DNA of 30,340 bases, taken from IMG/VR virus record IMGVR_UViG_2531839446_000015; one strand, 5' to 3'. Under the pieces are notes generated by a model. It did not search any database. It was not told the origin of the DNA and saw nothing but the letters and a program-made list of their open reading frames with translations. Shown piece by piece: positions 1-30,340 of this stretch. The stretch's first letter is position 1; each line of letters opens with the position of its first letter. The DNA comes from a virus. Taxonomy: Duplodnaviria > Heunggongvirae > Uroviricota > Caudoviricetes. Made by a program: the position numbers and the translations under genes.

Positions 1-296
1 CTATTTATCGGAAGGTTTATCCTGCTGCGGTTTGTTGTTGACCATATCGCACAACATAGAGAGCAGCATTAACCGTACTTTAAAGGGAGAATGACTAAAC
101 ACGCGCATACACCTCTTGAACTCATTCATAAGACCTCCTGACTTGCTAATCCCATCGATCCTTGAGGGATGATTGCATTACATACAGATATAGCACAGGC
201 TATATTATAAAGCATCAACTATCTGCGAAAAACAACAACTTACAGTGTTATCAATAAGTTACGTTGGTTAATGTCTGTGAGTATTCGGCAGTATTT

Positions 297-7321: not shown

Positions 7322-7440
7322 GTGTGCATGTGTGTGTAACACATTCATTTGTCAGTAGATGGCAGGAAATTAAATTTCACAATTCGTGCTTTAAGGTGTA
7401 CTGTATGTATATCCAGTTATTTATTGCTTGTGGGGGCTAA

Positions 7441-7647
7441 ATGGATCTTTTGGAGGCGTCGGCACAGCTGGAACGCATTGAGTTATTGGCCAAAATTGCC
7501 CATGTTTACGAAAGTAACCAGAGAGAAAAAACAATCGCTTTGGCCTGGATTGGAGAGCTTGCGGGAGAGGTTCGCGAAATGGTTAAAAAGGAAGGGCAAC
7601 GCCCCCAGAATGGGGGCATTTCAGGCGGCGGGAGTCGCTTTCAGTAG
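7441..7647 (+). CDS. Hypothetical small helical protein (68 aa), doubtful
   Basis: ORF in the A-to-portal interval; weak G-rich Shine-Dalgarno; 3' end overlaps the convergent ogr-like gene by 27 nt. Confidence 0.25.
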   Translation: MDLLEASAQLERIELLAKIAHVYESNQREKTIALAWIGELAGEVREMVKKEGQRPQNGGISGGGSRFQ

Positions 7648-7890
7648 GTCTAATGCCATCTGGCGCTGATCGGGTGAAAGTGCATTCAGTATTTTTTGCA
7701 CCATCGCATCACCCGCTTTAGCGCTGGGGCTGAGAGTGTGGGAGAACGTCAGATTCATAACAAACGTGTGGCCACACTCAACATCTGAACAGGCGCAGTA
7801 AATATCCGCAATTTGCCGGTGCTTCCTGTTCGTTTTACGAATAACAGCCTTTGAGCCGCATTCCGGGCATTCGATTTTCAGAACTCGCAT
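7621..7890 (-). CDS. ogr: Ogr/Delta-family zinc-finger late-gene transcription activator
   Basis: From ATG 7890 (GGAG upstream): MRVLKIECPECGSKAVIRKTNRKHRQIADIYCACSDVECGHTF gives C-x2-C-x22-C-x4-C spacing and a C-terminal TF motif as in P2 Ogr (CPLC ... CQNVNCSATF). The track ORF extends to 7944 with no Shine-Dalgarno. Confidence 0.7.
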   Translation of the reverse strand: MRVLKIECPECGSKAVIRKTNRKHRQIADIYCACSDVECGHTFVMNLTFSHTLSPSAKAGDAMVQKILNALSPDQRQMALDLLKATPAA

Positions 7891-7940
7891 ATTCCATGCT
7901 CCAGCTGTTAAATGATGCCTGGATTTTAGCCTGTTTCGCC

Positions 7941-9002
7941 TCATGCCGCACCCTTATCCGTTGATTCTGTGTAACTTAAATCAAAGTTAAGGTGTAGCCT
8001 TTCCGGTATTTCGGGATCATTGTTAACGGCCAGCATAAAACGGCGCTGGATGGGGGCAATTTCGCTTTTCTTGTAAATGCGTTCAGCCTTTTCAACATCC
8101 CCCAGTCCGGCAGTGTTCTGCGGGACAATACCGGCGAGGCCAGCAGGGAAACGGTGAGCGTTCAGAATGTCCTGGGCGCTGATGTTCTTGATGTTGGCAA
8201 ATTCATCCTTTGCGGAAATATCCCCCATTTCAATGAATTTGATGGCGTCGCCGTCTCCACCGGGAATGTTTACAAGGATGGTGGAGAAGTTACCGATCCC
8301 TTTGCTGTCACGCAGCTGCTGTTCAATTTCTTCCTCCATTTCGTCCGTCATGCTGGGATCGCGGGTATAAAGAATACCGCCTGTGTGCGCACCATTGTGG
8401 TAATAGCGGCGTCGGAAAATGACCGCTTCACTGTTAAGTAACGCGGAATGCACACCGCCTATGTAGTCCGGCAGCCCGTAGATATGCTGTTGCGGGTCAT
8501 ACATTTTGATGAAGATAATATCTTCTTCTGGCCATACCTGCGGTTCCCCTTCCTGTAACACCACGTAGTCACCAGGCTTATCCAGGGCGTTATCTCTGAC
8601 TTTGCGGCGGCGAATATACAGACCGGGCAAGGGTTCAAGTGCGATCACGTCACCCCAGCCGTTACGAATTTTGGCAATCGCAATATCCCCAAAGGTTATA
8701 TAGTCAAACGCTGCCGCTTCCAGCTGGTCGTGAATAAGCCCGCCCCCCTGGTAGTCTGAAACAATCATGTTTTTACGGGCGTGAATGATGCCGCCGTGCT
8801 GACCGTTAAGATTAATCAGTTGCGCGAGTGCCAGCCGGTCAATCGGCTGGGTGAAGTGATCGGCGGCATTGTCGTACCAGATATCACGGTAATCTGTGCC
8901 GGTAGTCAGAACTGGTTCAGGTTTGCCGAATGTGATAATGCTCATCTTTTTTGATTTGTCGCCGCGCTGGTCGCGCTTAACAAAGCGTTTCTTTTTACTC
9001 AT
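7941..9002 (-). CDS. Portal protein (P2 gpQ-like)
   Basis: 353 aa; overlaps the large terminase stop; gene order Q-P opposite to O-N-M-L as in P2. Confidence 0.85.
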   Translation of the reverse strand: MSKKKRFVKRDQRGDKSKKMSIITFGKPEPVLTTGTDYRDIWYDNAADHFTQPIDRLALAQLINLNGQHGGIIHARKNMIVSDYQGGGLIHDQLEAAAFDYITFGDIAIAKIRNGWGDVIALEPLPGLYIRRRKVRDNALDKPGDYVVLQEGEPQVWPEEDIIFIKMYDPQQHIYGLPDYIGGVHSALLNSEAVIFRRRYYHNGAHTGGILYTRDPSMTDEMEEEIEQQLRDSKGIGNFSTILVNIPGGDGDAIKFIEMGDISAKDEFANIKNISAQDILNAHRFPAGLAGIVPQNTAGLGDVEKAERIYKKSEIAPIQRRFMLAVNNDPEIPERLHLNFDLSYTESTDKGAA

Positions 9003-26165: not shown

Positions 26166-27868
26166 TGATGAAACCAGTAAAACGCCTTTACCTTTCAACG
26201 GATGAAGTTCACCTGGTGGATGCCAGCCTGGTACTGGAGCTGAACAGCTGCGGCCGGGGCTTCATCACCGCAGAGACAACAACCGATTACACCGGAAAAC
26301 TGGTGCGGCTGGATGTAGGGTATACCGATCTGCTTTTGCGCTGGTTTACGGGGTACGTGGAGCGATCGCAGCCCGCAGAAAACGGTTTTCAGCGTCTGTT
26401 CATTCGTGAGCTGGTAGGTGTGTTTGAAAGGATGTGGCCGTGCTCATTTCAACATCCAACTTTACGCGAGGTTGCCAGCTGGCTGGAAGAAAACAGTGGT
26501 ATCTCGGTCAGTGTGCCTGATGCACAGTACAGCGATACCCCCATCCCACATTTTACCCATAACGGTACCGGCTATCAGTTGCTGAACAATCTGGGAAGGG
26601 CGTTCAGTATCCAGGATTACATCTGGTACCAGTTGCCTGATGGTTCGCTTTACGTCGGTGGCGCAGAAAAGTCACTGTTTGCCGGTCGTCCCGTAGAAAT
26701 CCCGTCAGAGTTCAGCCAGGGGGCTGCTGGTGGTAACTCTGTGACATTACCAGTGATCCAGACTATGCGGCCAGGGGTGGAGATGAACGGTGAACGCGTG
26801 ACTAAAGTTCACCTGACTAATGACACGATGGCGATCACATGGACGCCGAGAAACCGCGCAACGGGTAAACCTTTGCAGAAAACACCGGCGCAACGGCAGA
26901 TTGAAAGCCATTACCCGGAACTGGCATCCGGGCTTCATTTGCCAAAGACGGCCAGAGTCGTGGCGCATTCAGAGCCAGTAAAAAGCGGTAACTTTGCCGA
27001 TCCCTTCCGGCCACGTTACGCCGTGGACGTGCAACTGCTTGACGCAGACGGAAACCCGGACAATCAGACGCCTGTTTACTCAGCGGTGCCGCTGCCGGTA
27101 CCAATGGCCGGGAATGATTCAGGTATGTTTCAGTTCCCGCCTGAAGGGACGCTGGTTGAGGTCGCATTCACAGGAGGCAGACCGGATAAACCCTTTATCA
27201 GGCAGACGCTGCCGGATGGCACCAGTCTGCCGGACGTTAAACCCGGTGAGCAATTACAGCAGCAGCGGGAAGAAGTATCCCTGAGGGTGACTCAGGCGGG
27301 TGACTGGGTAAGGCAGACCGATCAGACCATCAGCGAAACATCAATGGTGCGAACCGTAAAAGCCGATACAGAACAGCGCGAACTGGTCAGCCGTGAAACC
27401 ACGGTGAAAGCCACGGATAAAACCACGGTACTGGGAACCGCCACATTGCTGGCCGGAGCCATCCAGCAGGTAAGCGCCGGTGATTATAGCCAGGCGGTGA
27501 AAGGTAACAGGCTGGCCAGTATTGAAGGAAACGAAGAAACGGACATAGCAGGACAGCAGTCCACTAAAGTGGGCGGTGCTGTAGCCGTGGAGGTTGGCGA
27601 AAGTCTGACAGAGAAGATTGCCGCACTGCGTAAATCAGTGGCTGCTGGCGGTCAGCAGGTCATGGGGGCAACTGTCCATATTGGCAGTGAGAGCATCAAC
27701 GCCCTGACCATGATGCTGGATACCATTGATTTACTGGCAGAGCTTGCGCAGCAATGCGCGAACCATTCGCACCCCACCGTTGGAACTCCAACCAATGCCG
27801 CCGCGTTCACACTGACGGCGACGAAAGCCGGGCAGACCCGGAGCAAATACCAGAATATAATTGCCTGA
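26165..27868 (+). CDS. Baseplate hub / central spike protein (gpV/gp5-like OB-fold domain)
   Basis: 567 aa; FQFPPEGTLVEVAFTGGRPDKPFI matches the gpV/gp5 OB-fold consensus (P2 gpV: VGEQVLILAVGGELDTAFVL); C-terminal ANHSHPTVG resembles the His-rich spike apex; about 300 aa of extra N-terminal sequence. Confidence 0.6.
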   Translation: MMKPVKRLYLSTDEVHLVDASLVLELNSCGRGFITAETTTDYTGKLVRLDVGYTDLLLRWFTGYVERSQPAENGFQRLFIRELVGVFERMWPCSFQHPTLREVASWLEENSGISVSVPDAQYSDTPIPHFTHNGTGYQLLNNLGRAFSIQDYIWYQLPDGSLYVGGAEKSLFAGRPVEIPSEFSQGAAGGNSVTLPVIQTMRPGVEMNGERVTKVHLTNDTMAITWTPRNRATGKPLQKTPAQRQIESHYPELASGLHLPKTARVVAHSEPVKSGNFADPFRPRYAVDVQLLDADGNPDNQTPVYSAVPLPVPMAGNDSGMFQFPPEGTLVEVAFTGGRPDKPFIRQTLPDGTSLPDVKPGEQLQQQREEVSLRVTQAGDWVRQTDQTISETSMVRTVKADTEQRELVSRETTVKATDKTTVLGTATLLAGAIQQVSAGDYSQAVKGNRLASIEGNEETDIAGQQSTKVGGAVAVEVGESLTEKIAALRKSVAAGGQQVMGATVHIGSESINALTMMLDTIDLLAELAQQCANHSHPTVGTPTNAAAFTLTATKAGQTRSKYQNIIA

Positions 27869-27880
27869 CCATGATAACAC

Positions 27881-27903
27881 GCCCGCATAATGCGGGCTTT
27901 TTT
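27881..27903 (+). terminator. Rho-independent terminator ending the late/tail operon
   Basis: GCCCGC-ATAAT-GCGGGC hairpin (27881-27897) followed by TTTTTT (27898-27903), 13 nt after the spike gene stop. Confidence 0.8.
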
Positions 27904-28312
27904 ATACCCTTCTCCAGACGCAGCAGAACGCACCCTCAGCACTTTAGGCAACAAATTAACCCAACTCAACACACATAAAAGATCGTGCGCATGGCGCTGC
28001 GTTGGCGCGACGATGCACCGACAAAATAAATCTTTCGCAGACAAAAACGGCGCTACACCGCACCCGCCTGCGGTTTCTGGATCTGGAAAATTTTTCTGTT
28101 TTATTTTTCTACAAAACAGACCGCCAGACCGCGCCGCTGCTGGCGGCTTTGCGGAGAACTGAAACTGAAATGATTGAAAAGGATTTCACTTTTTTTCAGT
28201 GAAAAGGATCTGTGAAGGATCGATGGGAAAATATAACTATCAGAATATAAAAGAGAAATTGAATTTTAGGTGGCGTTTGTGGATCGTTAGTTAAAGGGGG
28301 GGGATATTCTGT

Positions 28313-28344
28313 AAAAAAGCCCGCGACATCAGATGTGGCGCGGG
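28313..28344 (-). terminator. Rho-independent terminator for the minus-strand gene 28384-29100
   Basis: Stem CCCGCG (28320-28325) pairs with CGCGGG (28339-28344); on the minus strand it is followed by a U6 run (plus-strand A-run 28313-28318); 40 nt downstream of the gene stop. Confidence 0.65.
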
Positions 28345-28383
28345 ATGGATAGAAATTTATTCTTATAGAACAACTGAAAAAAA

Positions 28384-29100
28384 TTACTTTAAACTGAGTT
28401 TAAAATTTTTGAATTTACCATACAGGGTATCGCGTACAGAAAAGGAAGGAACCCAATTGAATCCTGTTCGCCATGGGCGAGGACTACCGTGAAAGCATAC
28501 AACTGAAACATCATCAGGAACTTTGCCAGTAGCATAATCTGATGCCAAGTCAGGGTTGTAACCTATCATTTTACGTGTGGCTATATGGCATTTGTAACTA
28601 ACAACAGATCCGGGAATTATATCTTGCCACAATACAGGTTTCATGACGCTACCCAGAAACCCCTGATCACCCCATTTATCTTCTGTTTGGCATTCATGCA
28701 TATTTTTTTCGGGGTCAGTCCAGAACGCATCCCAAACATATTGTTTGATAGACGCAGGAATGAACATAATGGATGAGTTAACCCTGGAAGGGTGGTTAAA
28801 CTCCCGCAGCATAGTGAACTCTTTCGCCGCATCAAAGATTTTGATATCACCAGTTATGACAACATCAACGTCAAAATAAAGCAGATCCTTATCACCTATT
28901 ACCGGATGGTTTGGATTAAAAAGCTCAATCTTAGACCACCAACCTGGAAGGTTGTGCATTAACGGTGCGGTTTCAACACCAGGGATACTTCCAGCATCAG
29001 TTAAGCAAATTGAAGGTATGCCTTTAAATTGGCTATGCAGCCATTGTGCGTGTTTGGGGGTAAATTCTTTACCGCATTTAAGGACGGATACAATCAGCAT
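28384..29100 (-). CDS. Putative glycosyltransferase-like protein (DxD-type motif), AT-rich cargo or flanking gene
   Basis: 238 aa; motif LLYFDVDVVITGD resembles the DxD region of GT-A fold nucleotide-sugar transferases; AT-rich relative to the prophage; own terminator. Functional call is weak. Confidence 0.4.
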   Translation of the reverse strand: MLIVSVLKCGKEFTPKHAQWLHSQFKGIPSICLTDAGSIPGVETAPLMHNLPGWWSKIELFNPNHPVIGDKDLLYFDVDVVITGDIKIFDAAKEFTMLREFNHPSRVNSSIMFIPASIKQYVWDAFWTDPEKNMHECQTEDKWGDQGFLGSVMKPVLWQDIIPGSVVSYKCHIATRKMIGYNPDLASDYATGKVPDDVSVVCFHGSPRPWRTGFNWVPSFSVRDTLYGKFKNFKLSLK

Positions 29101-29281
29101 ATGGGAATCCCATTCTTTAGAGCAATAGTGTGCATTTTTTGAACATCGGCAATACTAAAATAAATAGTCAGGGCATAATTTTCTTAGGTAAGAGTCATGA
29201 TGCCTCATGCCATTCCTTACGTAAAGCTAGGCAGACTCAGCATAATGAGGGGACAAAAAGGGGACGCTGACCACTACAAAC

Positions 29282-29309
29282 AAAAAAGCCACTCCGTCAG
29301 AAGTGGCTT
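29282..29309 (-). terminator. Rho-independent terminator just downstream of the tRNA-like fragment
   Basis: Stem AGCCACT (29288-29294) pairs with AGTGGCT (29303-29309); followed on the minus strand by a U6 run (plus-strand A-run 29282-29287). Confidence 0.6.
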
Positions 29310-29335
29310 AATTATATGATTATAAAGCTAAAATT

Positions 29336-29380
29336 TGGTGGCCCCTTGGACTTGAACCAGCGCCCGGGCGATTATAAGTC
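29336..29380 (-). tRNA. Partial tRNA (3' half, anticodon loop to CCA), tRNA-Ile2/Met(CAU)-like; probable attachment-site remnant
   Basis: Minus-strand sense GACTTATAATCGCCCGGGCGCTGGTTCAAGTCCAAGGGGCCACCA aligns with my recollection of E. coli ileX from the anticodon loop to the 3' end (GACTCATAATCGCTTGGTCGCTGGTTCAAGTCCAGCAGGGGCCACCA), with a few substitutions and a 2-nt gap. Upstream sequence is AT-rich and cannot form an acceptor stem, so it is not an intact tRNA. Confidence 0.5.
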
Positions 29381-29556
29381 TTATGGTGTAACCTTTTGAT
29401 ATTTATATATAAATTTTATTTTTATGTGAATTTTAAGGATCTCTAACCGCTTTATTTTTGGCTAAAAAACCCGCAGTTGTAGCAATGATGCGGGTTGAGT
29501 TAGTCTTTAAAACTGAAATTGATCAGCCATAGCGTTCATAGGTAGCTGCGTATGCA

Positions 29557-29721
29557 TTAACGTTTTTTAGGTGGTGGGGCTACTTGCTGCGTTTGCTGCG
29601 TTTGCCGTGGTGGTTGATAACCATTGTTCTGCTGATTTGGCCTACTTGATGGTTGATATCCCTCATTTATAGGTTGCCAGCCATCATATTTAGTATTGTT
29701 TGCCGGTTTTTCTTCAGCCAT
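29557..29721 (-). CDS. Gln/Pro/Asn-rich micro-protein (54 aa), putative
   Basis: MAEEKPANNTKYDGWQPINEGYQPSSRPNQQNNGYQPPRQTQQTQQVAPPPKKR; its ATG overlaps the stop of the upstream membrane-protein gene (ATGGCTGA). Below the 60-aa track cutoff. Confidence 0.3.
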   Translation of the reverse strand: MAEEKPANNTKYDGWQPINEGYQPSSRPNQQNNGYQPPRQTQQTQQVAPPPKKR

Positions 29722-30340
29722 TTTTTACCTCACTATTGTTGGGAGAATGTAATTTTACCTCAATAAACTCAACACTTTCTATTTCATTAGTCAATATTAT
29801 TATGCCTAATGTATCAGCTAGTTCGTGATCGAAATCGCCATTCTCATCAAGCGCCCAATGTTTCTCAAGATAGATTTGTTCGGGTTCTGGACTATTGGAT
29901 GCAAATGAGTCACTTCCATAAAAACCACCATATTTTTTACCGTTTTTTAGTGTTACCAATACCCAGCAGCGTTGTCTGGTTGAGAAGAAGTAGTCCCAAG
30001 AGCGCCCTATAGGGTGTGGAAGAATATTTTTGACTTTTTCCCAGTTACGAATTTTTAGCAATGCAACAGGTAATAGTACAGGTATTACAATTAAAACTAA
30101 AAAGTAAAAAATGTAATATAAAATAGGGTGTTTCAAAAAAATGTCATTTGTTTCAATTAGATAAATTGGTATTAAAAGAAATGAAAAATTTATGCAACTA
30201 TATGAAACAACGTCAATTAAAACTTTTGATGTATCCAAATCAATTGATGGGTGAAATAGTCTGTAAACTCTCATGCTGATAAATCCGGGCATAATGAACA
30301 GTACAAATAAAAACAATTTCCCCTTCTCTAAAATGTCCAT
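29714..30340 (-). CDS. Membrane protein (three predicted TM helices plus C-terminal soluble domain), AT-rich island gene; 5' end at window edge
   Basis: 208 aa ORF with hydrophobic segments LFLFVLFIMPGFI, CINFSFLLIPIYLI and YYIFYFLVLIVIPVLLPVALL; AT-rich codon usage unlike the prophage. The ATG coincides with the last bases of the window, so the true start may lie beyond it. Confidence 0.5.
   Translation of the reverse strand: MDILEKGKLFLFVLFIMPGFISMRVYRLFHPSIDLDTSKVLIDVVSYSCINFSFLLIPIYLIETNDIFLKHPILYYIFYFLVLIVIPVLLPVALLKIRNWEKVKNILPHPIGRSWDYFFSTRQRCWVLVTLKNGKKYGGFYGSDSFASNSPEPEQIYLEKHWALDENGDFDHELADTLGIIILTNEIESVEFIEVKLHSPNNSEVKNG

Follow-up and report, generated by a model that had tools for sequence, protein, structure and literature searches.

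The right end of this viral DNA raises the question of what an AT-rich flank with three small genes encodes, and whether it belongs to the prophage beside it. The DNA is IMG/VR virus record IMGVR_UViG_2531839446_000015, whose whole stretch of 30,340 nucleotides is called the window below; the flank in question covers positions 28,384 to 30,340. A preliminary description, made from the letters alone, had placed three open reading frames (ORFs) in this flank, a glycosyltransferase-like gene and a membrane-protein gene paired with a micro-ORF, and these were found, all on the minus strand, exactly where it had put them. We found that the last two genes, encoding a 208-aa DUF6338 membrane protein and a 54-aa micro-protein, are one instance of a widely conserved two-gene module, and that the flank is variable cargo carried by the prophage itself. 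The explanation that accounts best for the locus as a whole is prophage cargo in which a glycosyltransferase would convert the cell surface and the DUF6338 pair would serve as a phage-exclusion module; we consider the chances that all of this holds to be about even.

The micro-ORF is the least conspicuous of the three genes. It is short and of low complexity, and its product matched nothing in Pfam, NCBIfam, PHROGs or PADLOC, as would be expected of a chance reading frame in AT-rich DNA. At their junction the 208-aa ORF ends and the 54-aa ORF begins within the overlap ATGGCTGA, as the preliminary description had noted, and a Shine–Dalgarno sequence (GAGG) lies 6 nt upstream of the ATG of the latter. 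Because the start of the micro-ORF overlaps the stop of the upstream gene, the arrangement fits translation of the micro-ORF coupled to that of DUF6338. In 12 IMG/VR loci and in strain SC477, whose DUF6338 proteins are 59–85% identical to the one in the window, an ORF of 51–56 aa directly follows the DUF6338 gene. The micro-ORF is thereby present in all 13 close loci, with an internal stop in the copy of L012 and a truncated DUF6338 in L017, and the close loci share the consensus M..(H/N)DGWQP...(K/E)GYQP......QQNNGYQPP.QTQQTQ...PPPKKR. Between homologous loci the proportion of synonymous differences (pS) in the micro-ORF was 0.58–0.9, which is near saturation, and that of nonsynonymous differences (pN) only 0.04–0.25, giving a dN/dS of ∼0.04–0.1. 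Because of this ratio and its conservation after DUF6338, the 54-aa ORF is a real gene. A chance reading frame is also opposed by the Shine–Dalgarno sequence, by the mass-spectrometric detection of relatives of the protein and by the recurrence of the micro-ORF after DUF6338 across phyla; it is refuted by dN/dS together with the survey counts given below, and its probability is practically negligible. A database of 5.8 billion sequences held 14 protein clusters related to the micro-protein of the window, almost all of them unnamed. What resembles noise in AT-rich DNA is a member of a conserved micro-protein family that is found with almost all sampled DUF6338 genes across many phyla and that genome annotation has mostly missed. 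Judged from its composition, the 54-aa protein is probably disordered.

Protein-level support for this class of micro-proteins is provided by a digest-free proteomics study of P. stutzeri (PMC10433244), the only paper mentioning DUF6338 that was found in the literature. It describes three abundant, small Pro-rich proteins (36, 47 and 41 aa) whose genes share an operon with a DUF6338 gene. They end in ...APPPPKK, ...PPPPPKRDSK and ...PPPPPKKGG and were detected at 98–100% sequence coverage; membrane fractions lay outside that study. The likeness to the window consists of a DUF6338 gene followed by small, translated Pro-rich ORFs with PPPPKK-like tails, whereas the window has a single micro-gene, whose product carries three G[YW]QP motifs and resembles the P. 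stutzeri peptides in the C-terminal tail alone. The authors of that study regarded the three small proteins as not conserved beyond P. stutzeri, so the conservation of the class was missed previously. They also remarked on the occurrence of DUF6338 in biosynthetic gene clusters and on a possible antimicrobial action of small proteins rich in proline. A Mu-like prophage of Aeromonas salmonicida (L021 6588-7190) has three tandem micro-ORFs in three frames, each ending in PPPKKP and together lying between mor and a GH108 endolysin gene, which mirrors the three small proteins of P. stutzeri.

To extend the comparison beyond close relatives, the module was defined as an ORF of ∼45–70 aa that starts ∼−30 to +40 nt from the DUF6338 stop and has two or more G[YWF]xP motifs and a charged tail rich in Pro. 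The window ORF falls within this definition, with a start at −8, three motifs and the ending PPPKKR, and micro-ORFs were also seen after DUF6338 homologues at 33–50% identity. A broad survey with one genome per species yielded 80 DUF6338 loci at 38–49% identity from Gamma-, Beta-, Alpha- and Deltaproteobacteria, Nitrospirota, Chloroflexota, Bacteroidales, Synergistaceae, Planctomycetota, Sumerlaeota and one metagenome-assembled genome (MAG) of Methanosarcinales. In 64 of 78 distant loci the 330 nt downstream contained a small ORF with two or more G[YWF]xP motifs, compared with none of the 289 stretches that served as controls (opposite strand 0/78, upstream 0/74 and again 0/74, two kilobases away 0/63). 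When longer overlaps were allowed, a motif ORF was also present in six of eight loci that had previously been without one. L065 has no micro-ORF, and translation of its downstream DNA gives the impression of transposase-coding sequence; L039 has a split copy; in L054 an in-frame Met codon is present, with no start listed by the script; and L112 was left unscored, as no DUF6338 stop falls inside the locus. A programmed frameshift or a start-less micro-ORF, considered for the GC-rich loci in which DUF6338 is 223–259 aa long, was dropped, since these mostly have an ordinary ATG and Shine–Dalgarno sequence with an overlap of 20–180 nt; overlapping or closely spaced ORFs are the rule across the pair loci. 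Members of the micro-protein family have a median length of 56 aa, with 18% Pro, 11% Gly and 11% Lys, and come in two C-terminal flavours, PPPKKP/PPKKK and PPGDE.

These counts bear out the earlier suggestion of a coupled pair of membrane protein and micro-ORF. That suggestion had pictured a two-gene module at the end of the DNA: the coupling stood, and the pair proved to be the tail of a longer leftward operon that runs past the window (89 aa, 186 aa, PDC-S64, DUF6338, micro-ORF) as well as one instance of a widely conserved module. A conserved third gene was looked for and rejected, as SC477 and Salmonella have an 85-aa and a 165-aa protein, neither of them related to the 89-aa and 186-aa proteins. 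The 145 nearest neighbours in the 80 distant loci fall into 120 Pfam families, none of which occurs in more than three loci, and because no neighbour family recurs more often the pair has no third partner. The two genes form an autonomous module that moves horizontally. It is widely distributed and uncharacterised, and the conservation of its micro-protein appears to be unreported.

RefSeq annotates the same 208-aa coding sequence, and its product matches Pfam PF19865 (DUF6338) with 128.6 bits against a gathering cut-off of 26.5, over model positions 7–202 of 205. The family comprises 3,427 clusters at 50% identity (E ≤ 1e-3). In the predicted structure an N-terminal helix and five strongly bent antiparallel strands superpose on Sm and Hfq structures, as expected of an Sm-like fold, and a fold search of BFVD returned a single full-length relative, viral and uncharacterised. 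Because positive charges follow transmembrane helices TM1 and TM3, the positive-inside rule would place the N-terminus outside and the Sm-like domain in the cytoplasm. MscS channels likewise have three transmembrane helices followed by an Sm-like beta domain, and assemble into a heptameric ring. The order of elements is therefore alike, whereas DUF6338 has a complete Sm fold including the N-terminal helix and is without the C-terminal alpha/beta domain of MscS. Kinship with MscS was rejected, with an hhalign probability of 0.2% against YbiO and no Pfam MS_channel match at E ≤ 1, and the architecture is analogous only. From Sm, LSm and Hfq proteins DUF6338 differs in being membrane-anchored and only 9–25% identical, and in its presumed partner, which is not RNA but a peptide-like micro-protein. 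Like Sm/Hfq and MscS, to which it is analogous, it probably assembles into rings. FlgV, which came up as a keyword match in the literature, is an unrelated protein with two transmembrane helices that is not Sm-like.

Whether the two partners bind each other was approached through their charges. The net charge of the DUF6338 soluble domain is anti-correlated with that of its cognate micro-protein (Spearman rho −0.70, n = 76), and with that of the last eight residues at −0.78. In the Sm-like domain, the columns at which charges swap fall on N167, L128, D176 and I193 of the window protein. After dereplication the correlation was −0.63 at 70% identity and −0.47 at 60%; weighing against binding, it fell to −0.34 (not significant) at 55%, and because of this weakening shared ancestry may explain part of it. 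In a 250-aa protein of the representative library (P0234), DUF6338 is naturally fused in frame to a tail that resembles a micro-protein (...EGYETKGYKP...GGNKP...NKPPKK). Other long DUF6338 representatives have Pro/Ala/Ser-rich tails, which are probably overlapping frames in GC-rich genomes. Most likely, then, the two partners bind each other, and the 54-aa protein, made by coupled translation, would use its charged tail and G[YW]QP motifs to contact the Sm-like domain. Small-protein regulators of membrane proteins include AcrZ for AcrB, MgtS for MgtA and KdpF for KdpABC, which are hydrophobic single transmembrane helices. The window pair resembles them in that a protein of ∼50 aa is encoded next to a membrane protein that it probably binds, and differs in that this protein is hydrophilic, rich in Pro, Gly, Gln and Lys, and without a transmembrane segment. 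With this, a DUF family of ∼3,400 clusters gains a partner, which we describe as obligate, a membrane-anchored Sm-like frame and a testable binding hypothesis.

What the pair may do is suggested by its surroundings. It occupies the slot before attR of P2/HP1-like prophages in E. coli, Salmonella and Citrobacter, adjoins the integrase in a siphovirus-like prophage, with SNF2 and TIR genes alongside, lies beside an Abi_C gene in Enterobacter, and in Serratia adjoins integrases, insertion sequence elements and the S subunit of a type I restriction-modification system. Among the 80 distant loci the commonest neighbour families are SNF2, TIR_2, ThsB_TIR, caspase, AAA_21, SMC_N, AAA_13, AbiEii, Mrr and Abi_2, and the commonest PADLOC matches of neighbours are ZorD, DpdE, PDC-S06 and AbiEii. 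We tentatively propose, as a possibility taken from this context, that the pair is an inner-membrane phage-exclusion or abortive-infection module, in which the micro-protein would regulate or complete the membrane protein. That a membrane-anchored Sm-like ring is gated or armed by a disordered Pro-rich micro-protein, as a new phage-exclusion or abortive-infection effector or in some other new membrane function, we hold to be somewhat unlikely. Several results pull in the other direction. The neighbour counts are raw counts, no more than suggestive of a defence-island signal, and many neighbours of the distant homologues are ordinary metabolic genes. A defence-predictor search, which the preliminary description had advised for its suspected abortive-infection or toxin functions, came back empty, with no PADLOC-DB v2 family at E ≤ 1 for any of the three window proteins; neither DUF6338 nor the micro-protein matches a PADLOC, NCBIfam or annotated PHROG model, and no paper linking DUF6338 to defence was found in the literature. 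The structural model of DUF6338 is also only moderately confident, with a predicted local distance difference test score (pLDDT) of 76.

Some of the same evidence would suit a selfish addiction, toxin–antitoxin (TA)-like or membrane-homeostasis module, in which the small protein neutralizes or tunes the membrane protein and phage defence plays no part. The genes are coupled strictly 1:1 by overlapping or closely spaced ORFs, charge complementarity suggests binding, mobile elements have spread the pair across phyla at 38–49% identity, and many loci have no defence genes nearby. However, no TA family of Pfam, NCBIfam or PADLOC was matched, the small gene lies downstream whereas it is upstream in most type II TA pairs, and three tandem copies, as found in some loci, are unusual for antitoxins; we regard such a module as distinctly unlikely. 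Those tandem paralogous genes after DUF6338 in Aeromonas and P. stutzeri would be at home in a system of exported Pro-rich peptides or precursors resembling ribosomally synthesized and post-translationally modified peptides, with DUF6338 as the membrane protein for processing, export or immunity. Repeated GYQP motifs could then be modification sites, and the remark on biosynthetic gene clusters and antimicrobial small proteins (PMC10433244) points the same way. This is improbable in view of the 145 neighbours and their 120 Pfam families, among which no modifying enzyme or transporter is conserved beside the pair. Moreover, DUF6338 has an Sm-like barrel only and no recognisable catalytic domain, no signal or leader sequence is evident in the micro-protein, and the P. 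stutzeri peptides reached their near-complete coverage in a study outside membrane fractions.

A holin-like or lysis-timing role, with the micro-protein as regulator of a phage membrane protein, is very improbable for a pair that in the window lies on the strand opposite the late genes, past their terminator and in a variable slot, and that is absent from sister prophages. No PHROG holin family was matched and most distant loci are not in prophages, although a small protein with three transmembrane helices and a charged cytoplasmic C-terminal part looks the part and the Aeromonas Mu-like pair does lie between mor and an endolysin gene. We therefore return to phage exclusion or abortive infection as the reading put forward for the DUF6338 pair. 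If the pair acts in defence or membrane gating, its architecture is new; if it does neither, it is still a conserved, translated bacterial micro-protein, disordered by composition, with a fixed partner. As a two-component system, if it is one, DUF6338 and its micro-protein would extend over more than 3,000 protein clusters, many bacterial phyla and at least one archaeal MAG locus.

We next consider where the cargo lies (Table 1). The preliminary description had placed it after the prophage, in an island at a tRNA site. Window positions 297–27868 hold the integrase, repressor, CII, Fil, replication, head and tail genes of a P2/186/HP1-like prophage, and a direct repeat of 11–15 bp stands on both sides of the stretch from integrase to cargo. 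Because this repeat encloses the segment and prophage genes fill 297–27868, the AT-rich segment lies within the prophage, following the last tail gene and preceding attR. Compared directly, the attB, attL and attR sequences describe a single insertion relative to K-12, bounded by the direct repeat, and K-12 homology restarts at the same att base in all five strains examined. The point of insertion is the mntS promoter palindrome, between mntS and mntR. Hence, the placement after the prophage had to be given up, and so had the tRNA-site island, as there is no tRNA gene in the window, the insertion is at the mntS promoter, and the tRNA piece is an internal relic that comes from an ileY-integrating P2-like phage.

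Table 1. Positions of the features in the window and of the attachment sites outside it (strand as given; L001 and L003 are locus records)
Feature	Position	Strand	Basis or remark
attL core GCTATATTATAAAGC	199..213	.	left copy of the direct repeat bounding prophage and cargo; the K-12 mntS-mntR intergenic region aligns to either side of the insertion, its two matches overlapping by 15 bp
Late (tail) operon intrinsic terminator	27881..27897	+	terminator scan: 7-bp stem with 6 GC pairs, then TTTTTT
In-window part of variable cargo	28289..30340	.	sister-prophage homology ends by 28288; GC shift; continues to attR outside the window
Glycosyltransferase terminator	28313..28344	-	hairpin CCCGCG..CGCGGG and U-run (CUUUUUU)
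238-aa PmgQ-family GT-A (GT8-like) glycosyltransferase, stand-alone moron	28384..29100	-	PHROG, P1 homology, fold, DxD
att-region relic of an ileY-integrating P2-like phage	29279..29393	.	holds a terminator-like hairpin and a tRNA 3′ fragment
Terminator-like hairpin in relic	29286-29309	-	terminator scan
Degenerate tRNA-Ile(CAU) 3′ part, tRNA positions 30-76	29336..29380	-	blastn-short, 41/47 identities (87%), 2-nt gap; anticodon CAT changed to TAT
Leftward cargo operon terminator	29463..29496	-	AACCCGCA..UGCGGGUU then UUUU; RNA fold of window 29455-29556
54-aa micro-protein, Pro/Gln/Gly-rich	29557..29721	-	three G[YW]QP motifs (GWQP, GYQP, GYQP), C-terminal tail PPPKKR
208-aa DUF6338 protein, three transmembrane helices and predicted cytoplasmic Sm-like beta-barrel	29714..30340	-	complete gene; window ends at its ATG
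attR	L001 24443-24457		∼2.2 kb past the window end
attB GCTATATTATATAGC (K-12)	L003 2568-2582		palindrome in the mntS/rybA promoter

Base composition falls as the preliminary description had said, from a GC content of 0.51–0.58 in the prophage late region (∼0.53) to 0.39–0.42 past position 28000. Window 28100–30340 is 100% identical to E. coli Combat13F7 (NZ_CP019245.1), in whose record the segment is placed between mntS and mntR, and this was the only full-length match among 5,426 complete E. coli genomes; the DUF6338 part alone occurs in three more of them at 78% identity. Thus, the genes are not core genes of the species; core-gene status was the outcome that could have overturned the idea of AT-rich, horizontally acquired cargo, and this idea is upheld. 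Searched by megablast, 50,697 phage records contained no match to the segment, an Rfam search of window 27800–30340 (E ≤ 1) returned nothing, and NCBIfam had no match for any of the six cargo proteins.

The boundary of the cargo is set by 24 sister E. coli prophages with the same core, in none of which homology reaches beyond window 28288. The slot holds an AAA ATPase with a serine O-acetyltransferase in MFDS1019527, a serine acetyltransferase alone in CM2010-0578/1, a 165-aa zinc-ribbon protein, an 85-aa protein and DUF6338 in SC477 and Salmonella Infantis, the glycosyltransferase alone in Citrobacter amalonaticus, and in the present strain the glycosyltransferase, att relic, micro-ORF, DUF6338, PDC-S64 and the 186-aa and 89-aa proteins. 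As a moron slot, or cargo hotspot, it accordingly lies between att repeats, has a fixed place relative to core genes and holds five differing cargo sets. Window 28289–30340 is the first third of a ∼6.1-kb variable segment between the last tail gene and attR, and itself comprises two independent modules, the glycosyltransferase gene and the end of the leftward operon.

Variable accessory and anti-phage hotspots are known from P2-like prophages (Rousset et al. 2022, PMC9122126; Moura de Sousa et al. 2026 preprint, 10.64898/2026.02.27.708500). The main published ones lie between gpA and the portal gene and within the tail genes, and the preprint adds minor hotspots by the att site on the integrase side and within the late genes. 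The present slot resembles them in its fixed place, with content that differs between near-identical phages and gene swapping as described in the preprint, and in holding the PADLOC candidate PDC-S64 here and an AAA ATPase in a sister phage; it differs in its location between the last tail gene and attR, and from classical P2 also in an HP1-ORF34-like tail module. It is a further variable accessory position in P2-family prophages, by attR, of the kind that has yielded new anti-phage systems. The hotspot and the glycosyltransferase are of known kinds, and it is the conservation of the DUF6338–GYQP pair that appears newly recognised.

The two modules are set apart by the relic, which is 88% identical to the junction of ogr and tRNA-Ile of P2-like prophages at ileY in ∼40 E. 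coli genomes. The tRNA remnant reported in the preliminary description is real as far as its likeness to tRNA-Ile(CAU) goes; it is degenerate and part of the att relic of another P2-like phage, and the fragment is non-functional. ARAGORN found no tRNA gene in the window, and Rfam gave no match at the fragment. The relic is a recombination scar between two cargo modules and no attachment site of an island. A 10-mer common to attL and the tRNA relic was judged to be a chance match. Downstream of the micro-ORF, the hairpin that ends the leftward operon was missed by the simple terminator scan owing to its 13-nt loop.

The other module consists of the 238-aa gene, which the preliminary description took for a glycosyltransferase-like gene with a DxD-like motif and its own terminator, and this reading was sustained. 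The protein matches PHROG 1962 ‘glycosyltransferase’ over residues 1–223 (E 4.2e-81), is 39.5% identical to P1 PmgQ and P7 HdmD over 93% of the query (tblastn) and 76% identical to a gene of phage Chlobot; in the 50,697 phage records it was matched at the protein level only. The DxD motif is F-D77-V-D79-V, in which D77 is invariant among 54 homologues, and D79 and H204 are nearly invariant (≥90%). An AlphaFold2 model from the alignment of 54 sequences has a pLDDT of 96.8, and with it Foldseek placed LgtC, glycogenin and GlyE on top at probability 1.0. Nearly all of its top 50 are of GT8 type (LgtC, glycogenins, GlyE, 3tzt), with TM-scores of 0.49–0.57. Matches to strigolactone esterases in a phmmer search of PDB sequences (E ∼0.05) were spurious and were dropped in favour of the fold search. 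With retaining GT8 enzymes such as LgtC, glycogenin and GlyE the protein shares a superposable GT-A fold, the DxD motif and a conserved C-terminal His, whereas at 238 aa it is much smaller than LgtC and WaaJ-type enzymes. Against a place in GT8 proper, no Pfam family, including Glyco_transf_8, was matched at E ≤ 1. On the modelled fold and its motifs the protein is GT-A and GT8-like, and by hidden Markov model it is not a GT8 member. The RNA fold of window 28300–28384 (minus strand), which spans the terminator hairpin, had z = −2.69.

The activity of PmgQ itself is putative, and pmgQ is dispensable for lytic growth of P1 (PMC10695390), which fits an accessory gene, as such genes are expected to be non-essential. 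Because the window gene runs counter to the late operon and ends in a terminator of its own, expression in the lysogen is suggested. We infer lysogenic conversion of an envelope glycan. The enzyme would act in the cytoplasm and transfer sugar from a nucleotide-sugar donor, most likely to lipopolysaccharide (LPS) core or O-antigen, its DxD motif and conserved His being of the kind that binds Mn2+ in GT8 enzymes, and a changed surface of the lysogen could block adsorption. In P1, however, the homologue sits in a late-region block labelled ‘putative morphogenetic function’ (PMC10695390), which would suit a virion or DNA substrate equally well, and unlike it the window gene is a moron at the prophage end. 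The E. albertii homologue lies directly 3′ of tail-fibre assembly genes, on the same strand, at a prophage end, and the GT8 fold class includes protein glycosyltransferases (glycogenin, GlyE, Skp1 GalT). Modification of phage DNA, virion or host proteins instead of LPS is accordingly a possibility, and a lesser one, given the orientation and terminator of the window gene and one E. albertii locus in which the homologue stands beside GT4 fragments typical of polysaccharide loci. The enterobacterial GT8 enzymes are LPS-core transferases. Lysogenic conversion of the envelope stays our reading of this gene, which in the Citrobacter sister prophage is the only cargo.

Several smaller observations concern the rest of the prophage. 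Just outside the window, 20 nt upstream of DUF6338, the PDC-S64 gene (L001 22263-23288, minus strand) encodes a 341-aa PADLOC candidate (E 2.5e-47) with a weak C-terminal match to a double zinc ribbon, on which no paper was found in the literature; the 186-aa and 89-aa ORFs further upstream are unrelated, and the 89-aa product looks hydrophobic. On the mntS strand the attachment core includes TATAAT, 7 nt ahead of the annotated 5′ end of rybA. Integration leaves the intact upstream region of the host, with this −10 element, at attR and pointing into the leftward cargo operon (89 aa through DUF6338 and micro-ORF), while mntS in the lysogen retains the core only, with phage DNA upstream. Because the host upstream region and −10 element face the cargo operon, this suggests promoter capture, with control of the cargo by Mn/MntR and altered regulation of mntS in lysogens.

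The last tail gene (window 26165–27868) encodes a 567-aa gp5/V-like spike with weak matches to Phage_base_V and Gp5_C repeats only. Because an HP1_ORF34-like gene precedes it, this P2-family prophage has a tail tip of other than the classical P2 type. Window 28100–28288, after the late terminator, is still kept in sister prophages, which annotate small hypothetical genes there (88 aa in L004, 110 aa in L005, 84 aa in L002), and has an 87% match in E. coli 160-11H1, in a region without annotation. Two small ORFs of 106 aa (plus strand) and 107 aa (minus strand) lie between the replication and portal genes at window 7349–7944, where classical P2 has its old/tin anti-phage hotspot. Finally, the window must derive from a different assembly or strain in which the prophage is intact, since the Combat13F7 RefSeq chromosome is without 23 kb of the prophage (window 3164–26318 compared with L001 18190-18220); the junction contains a 37-bp copy of window 20016–20052 and creates a fusion ORF of 579 aa.

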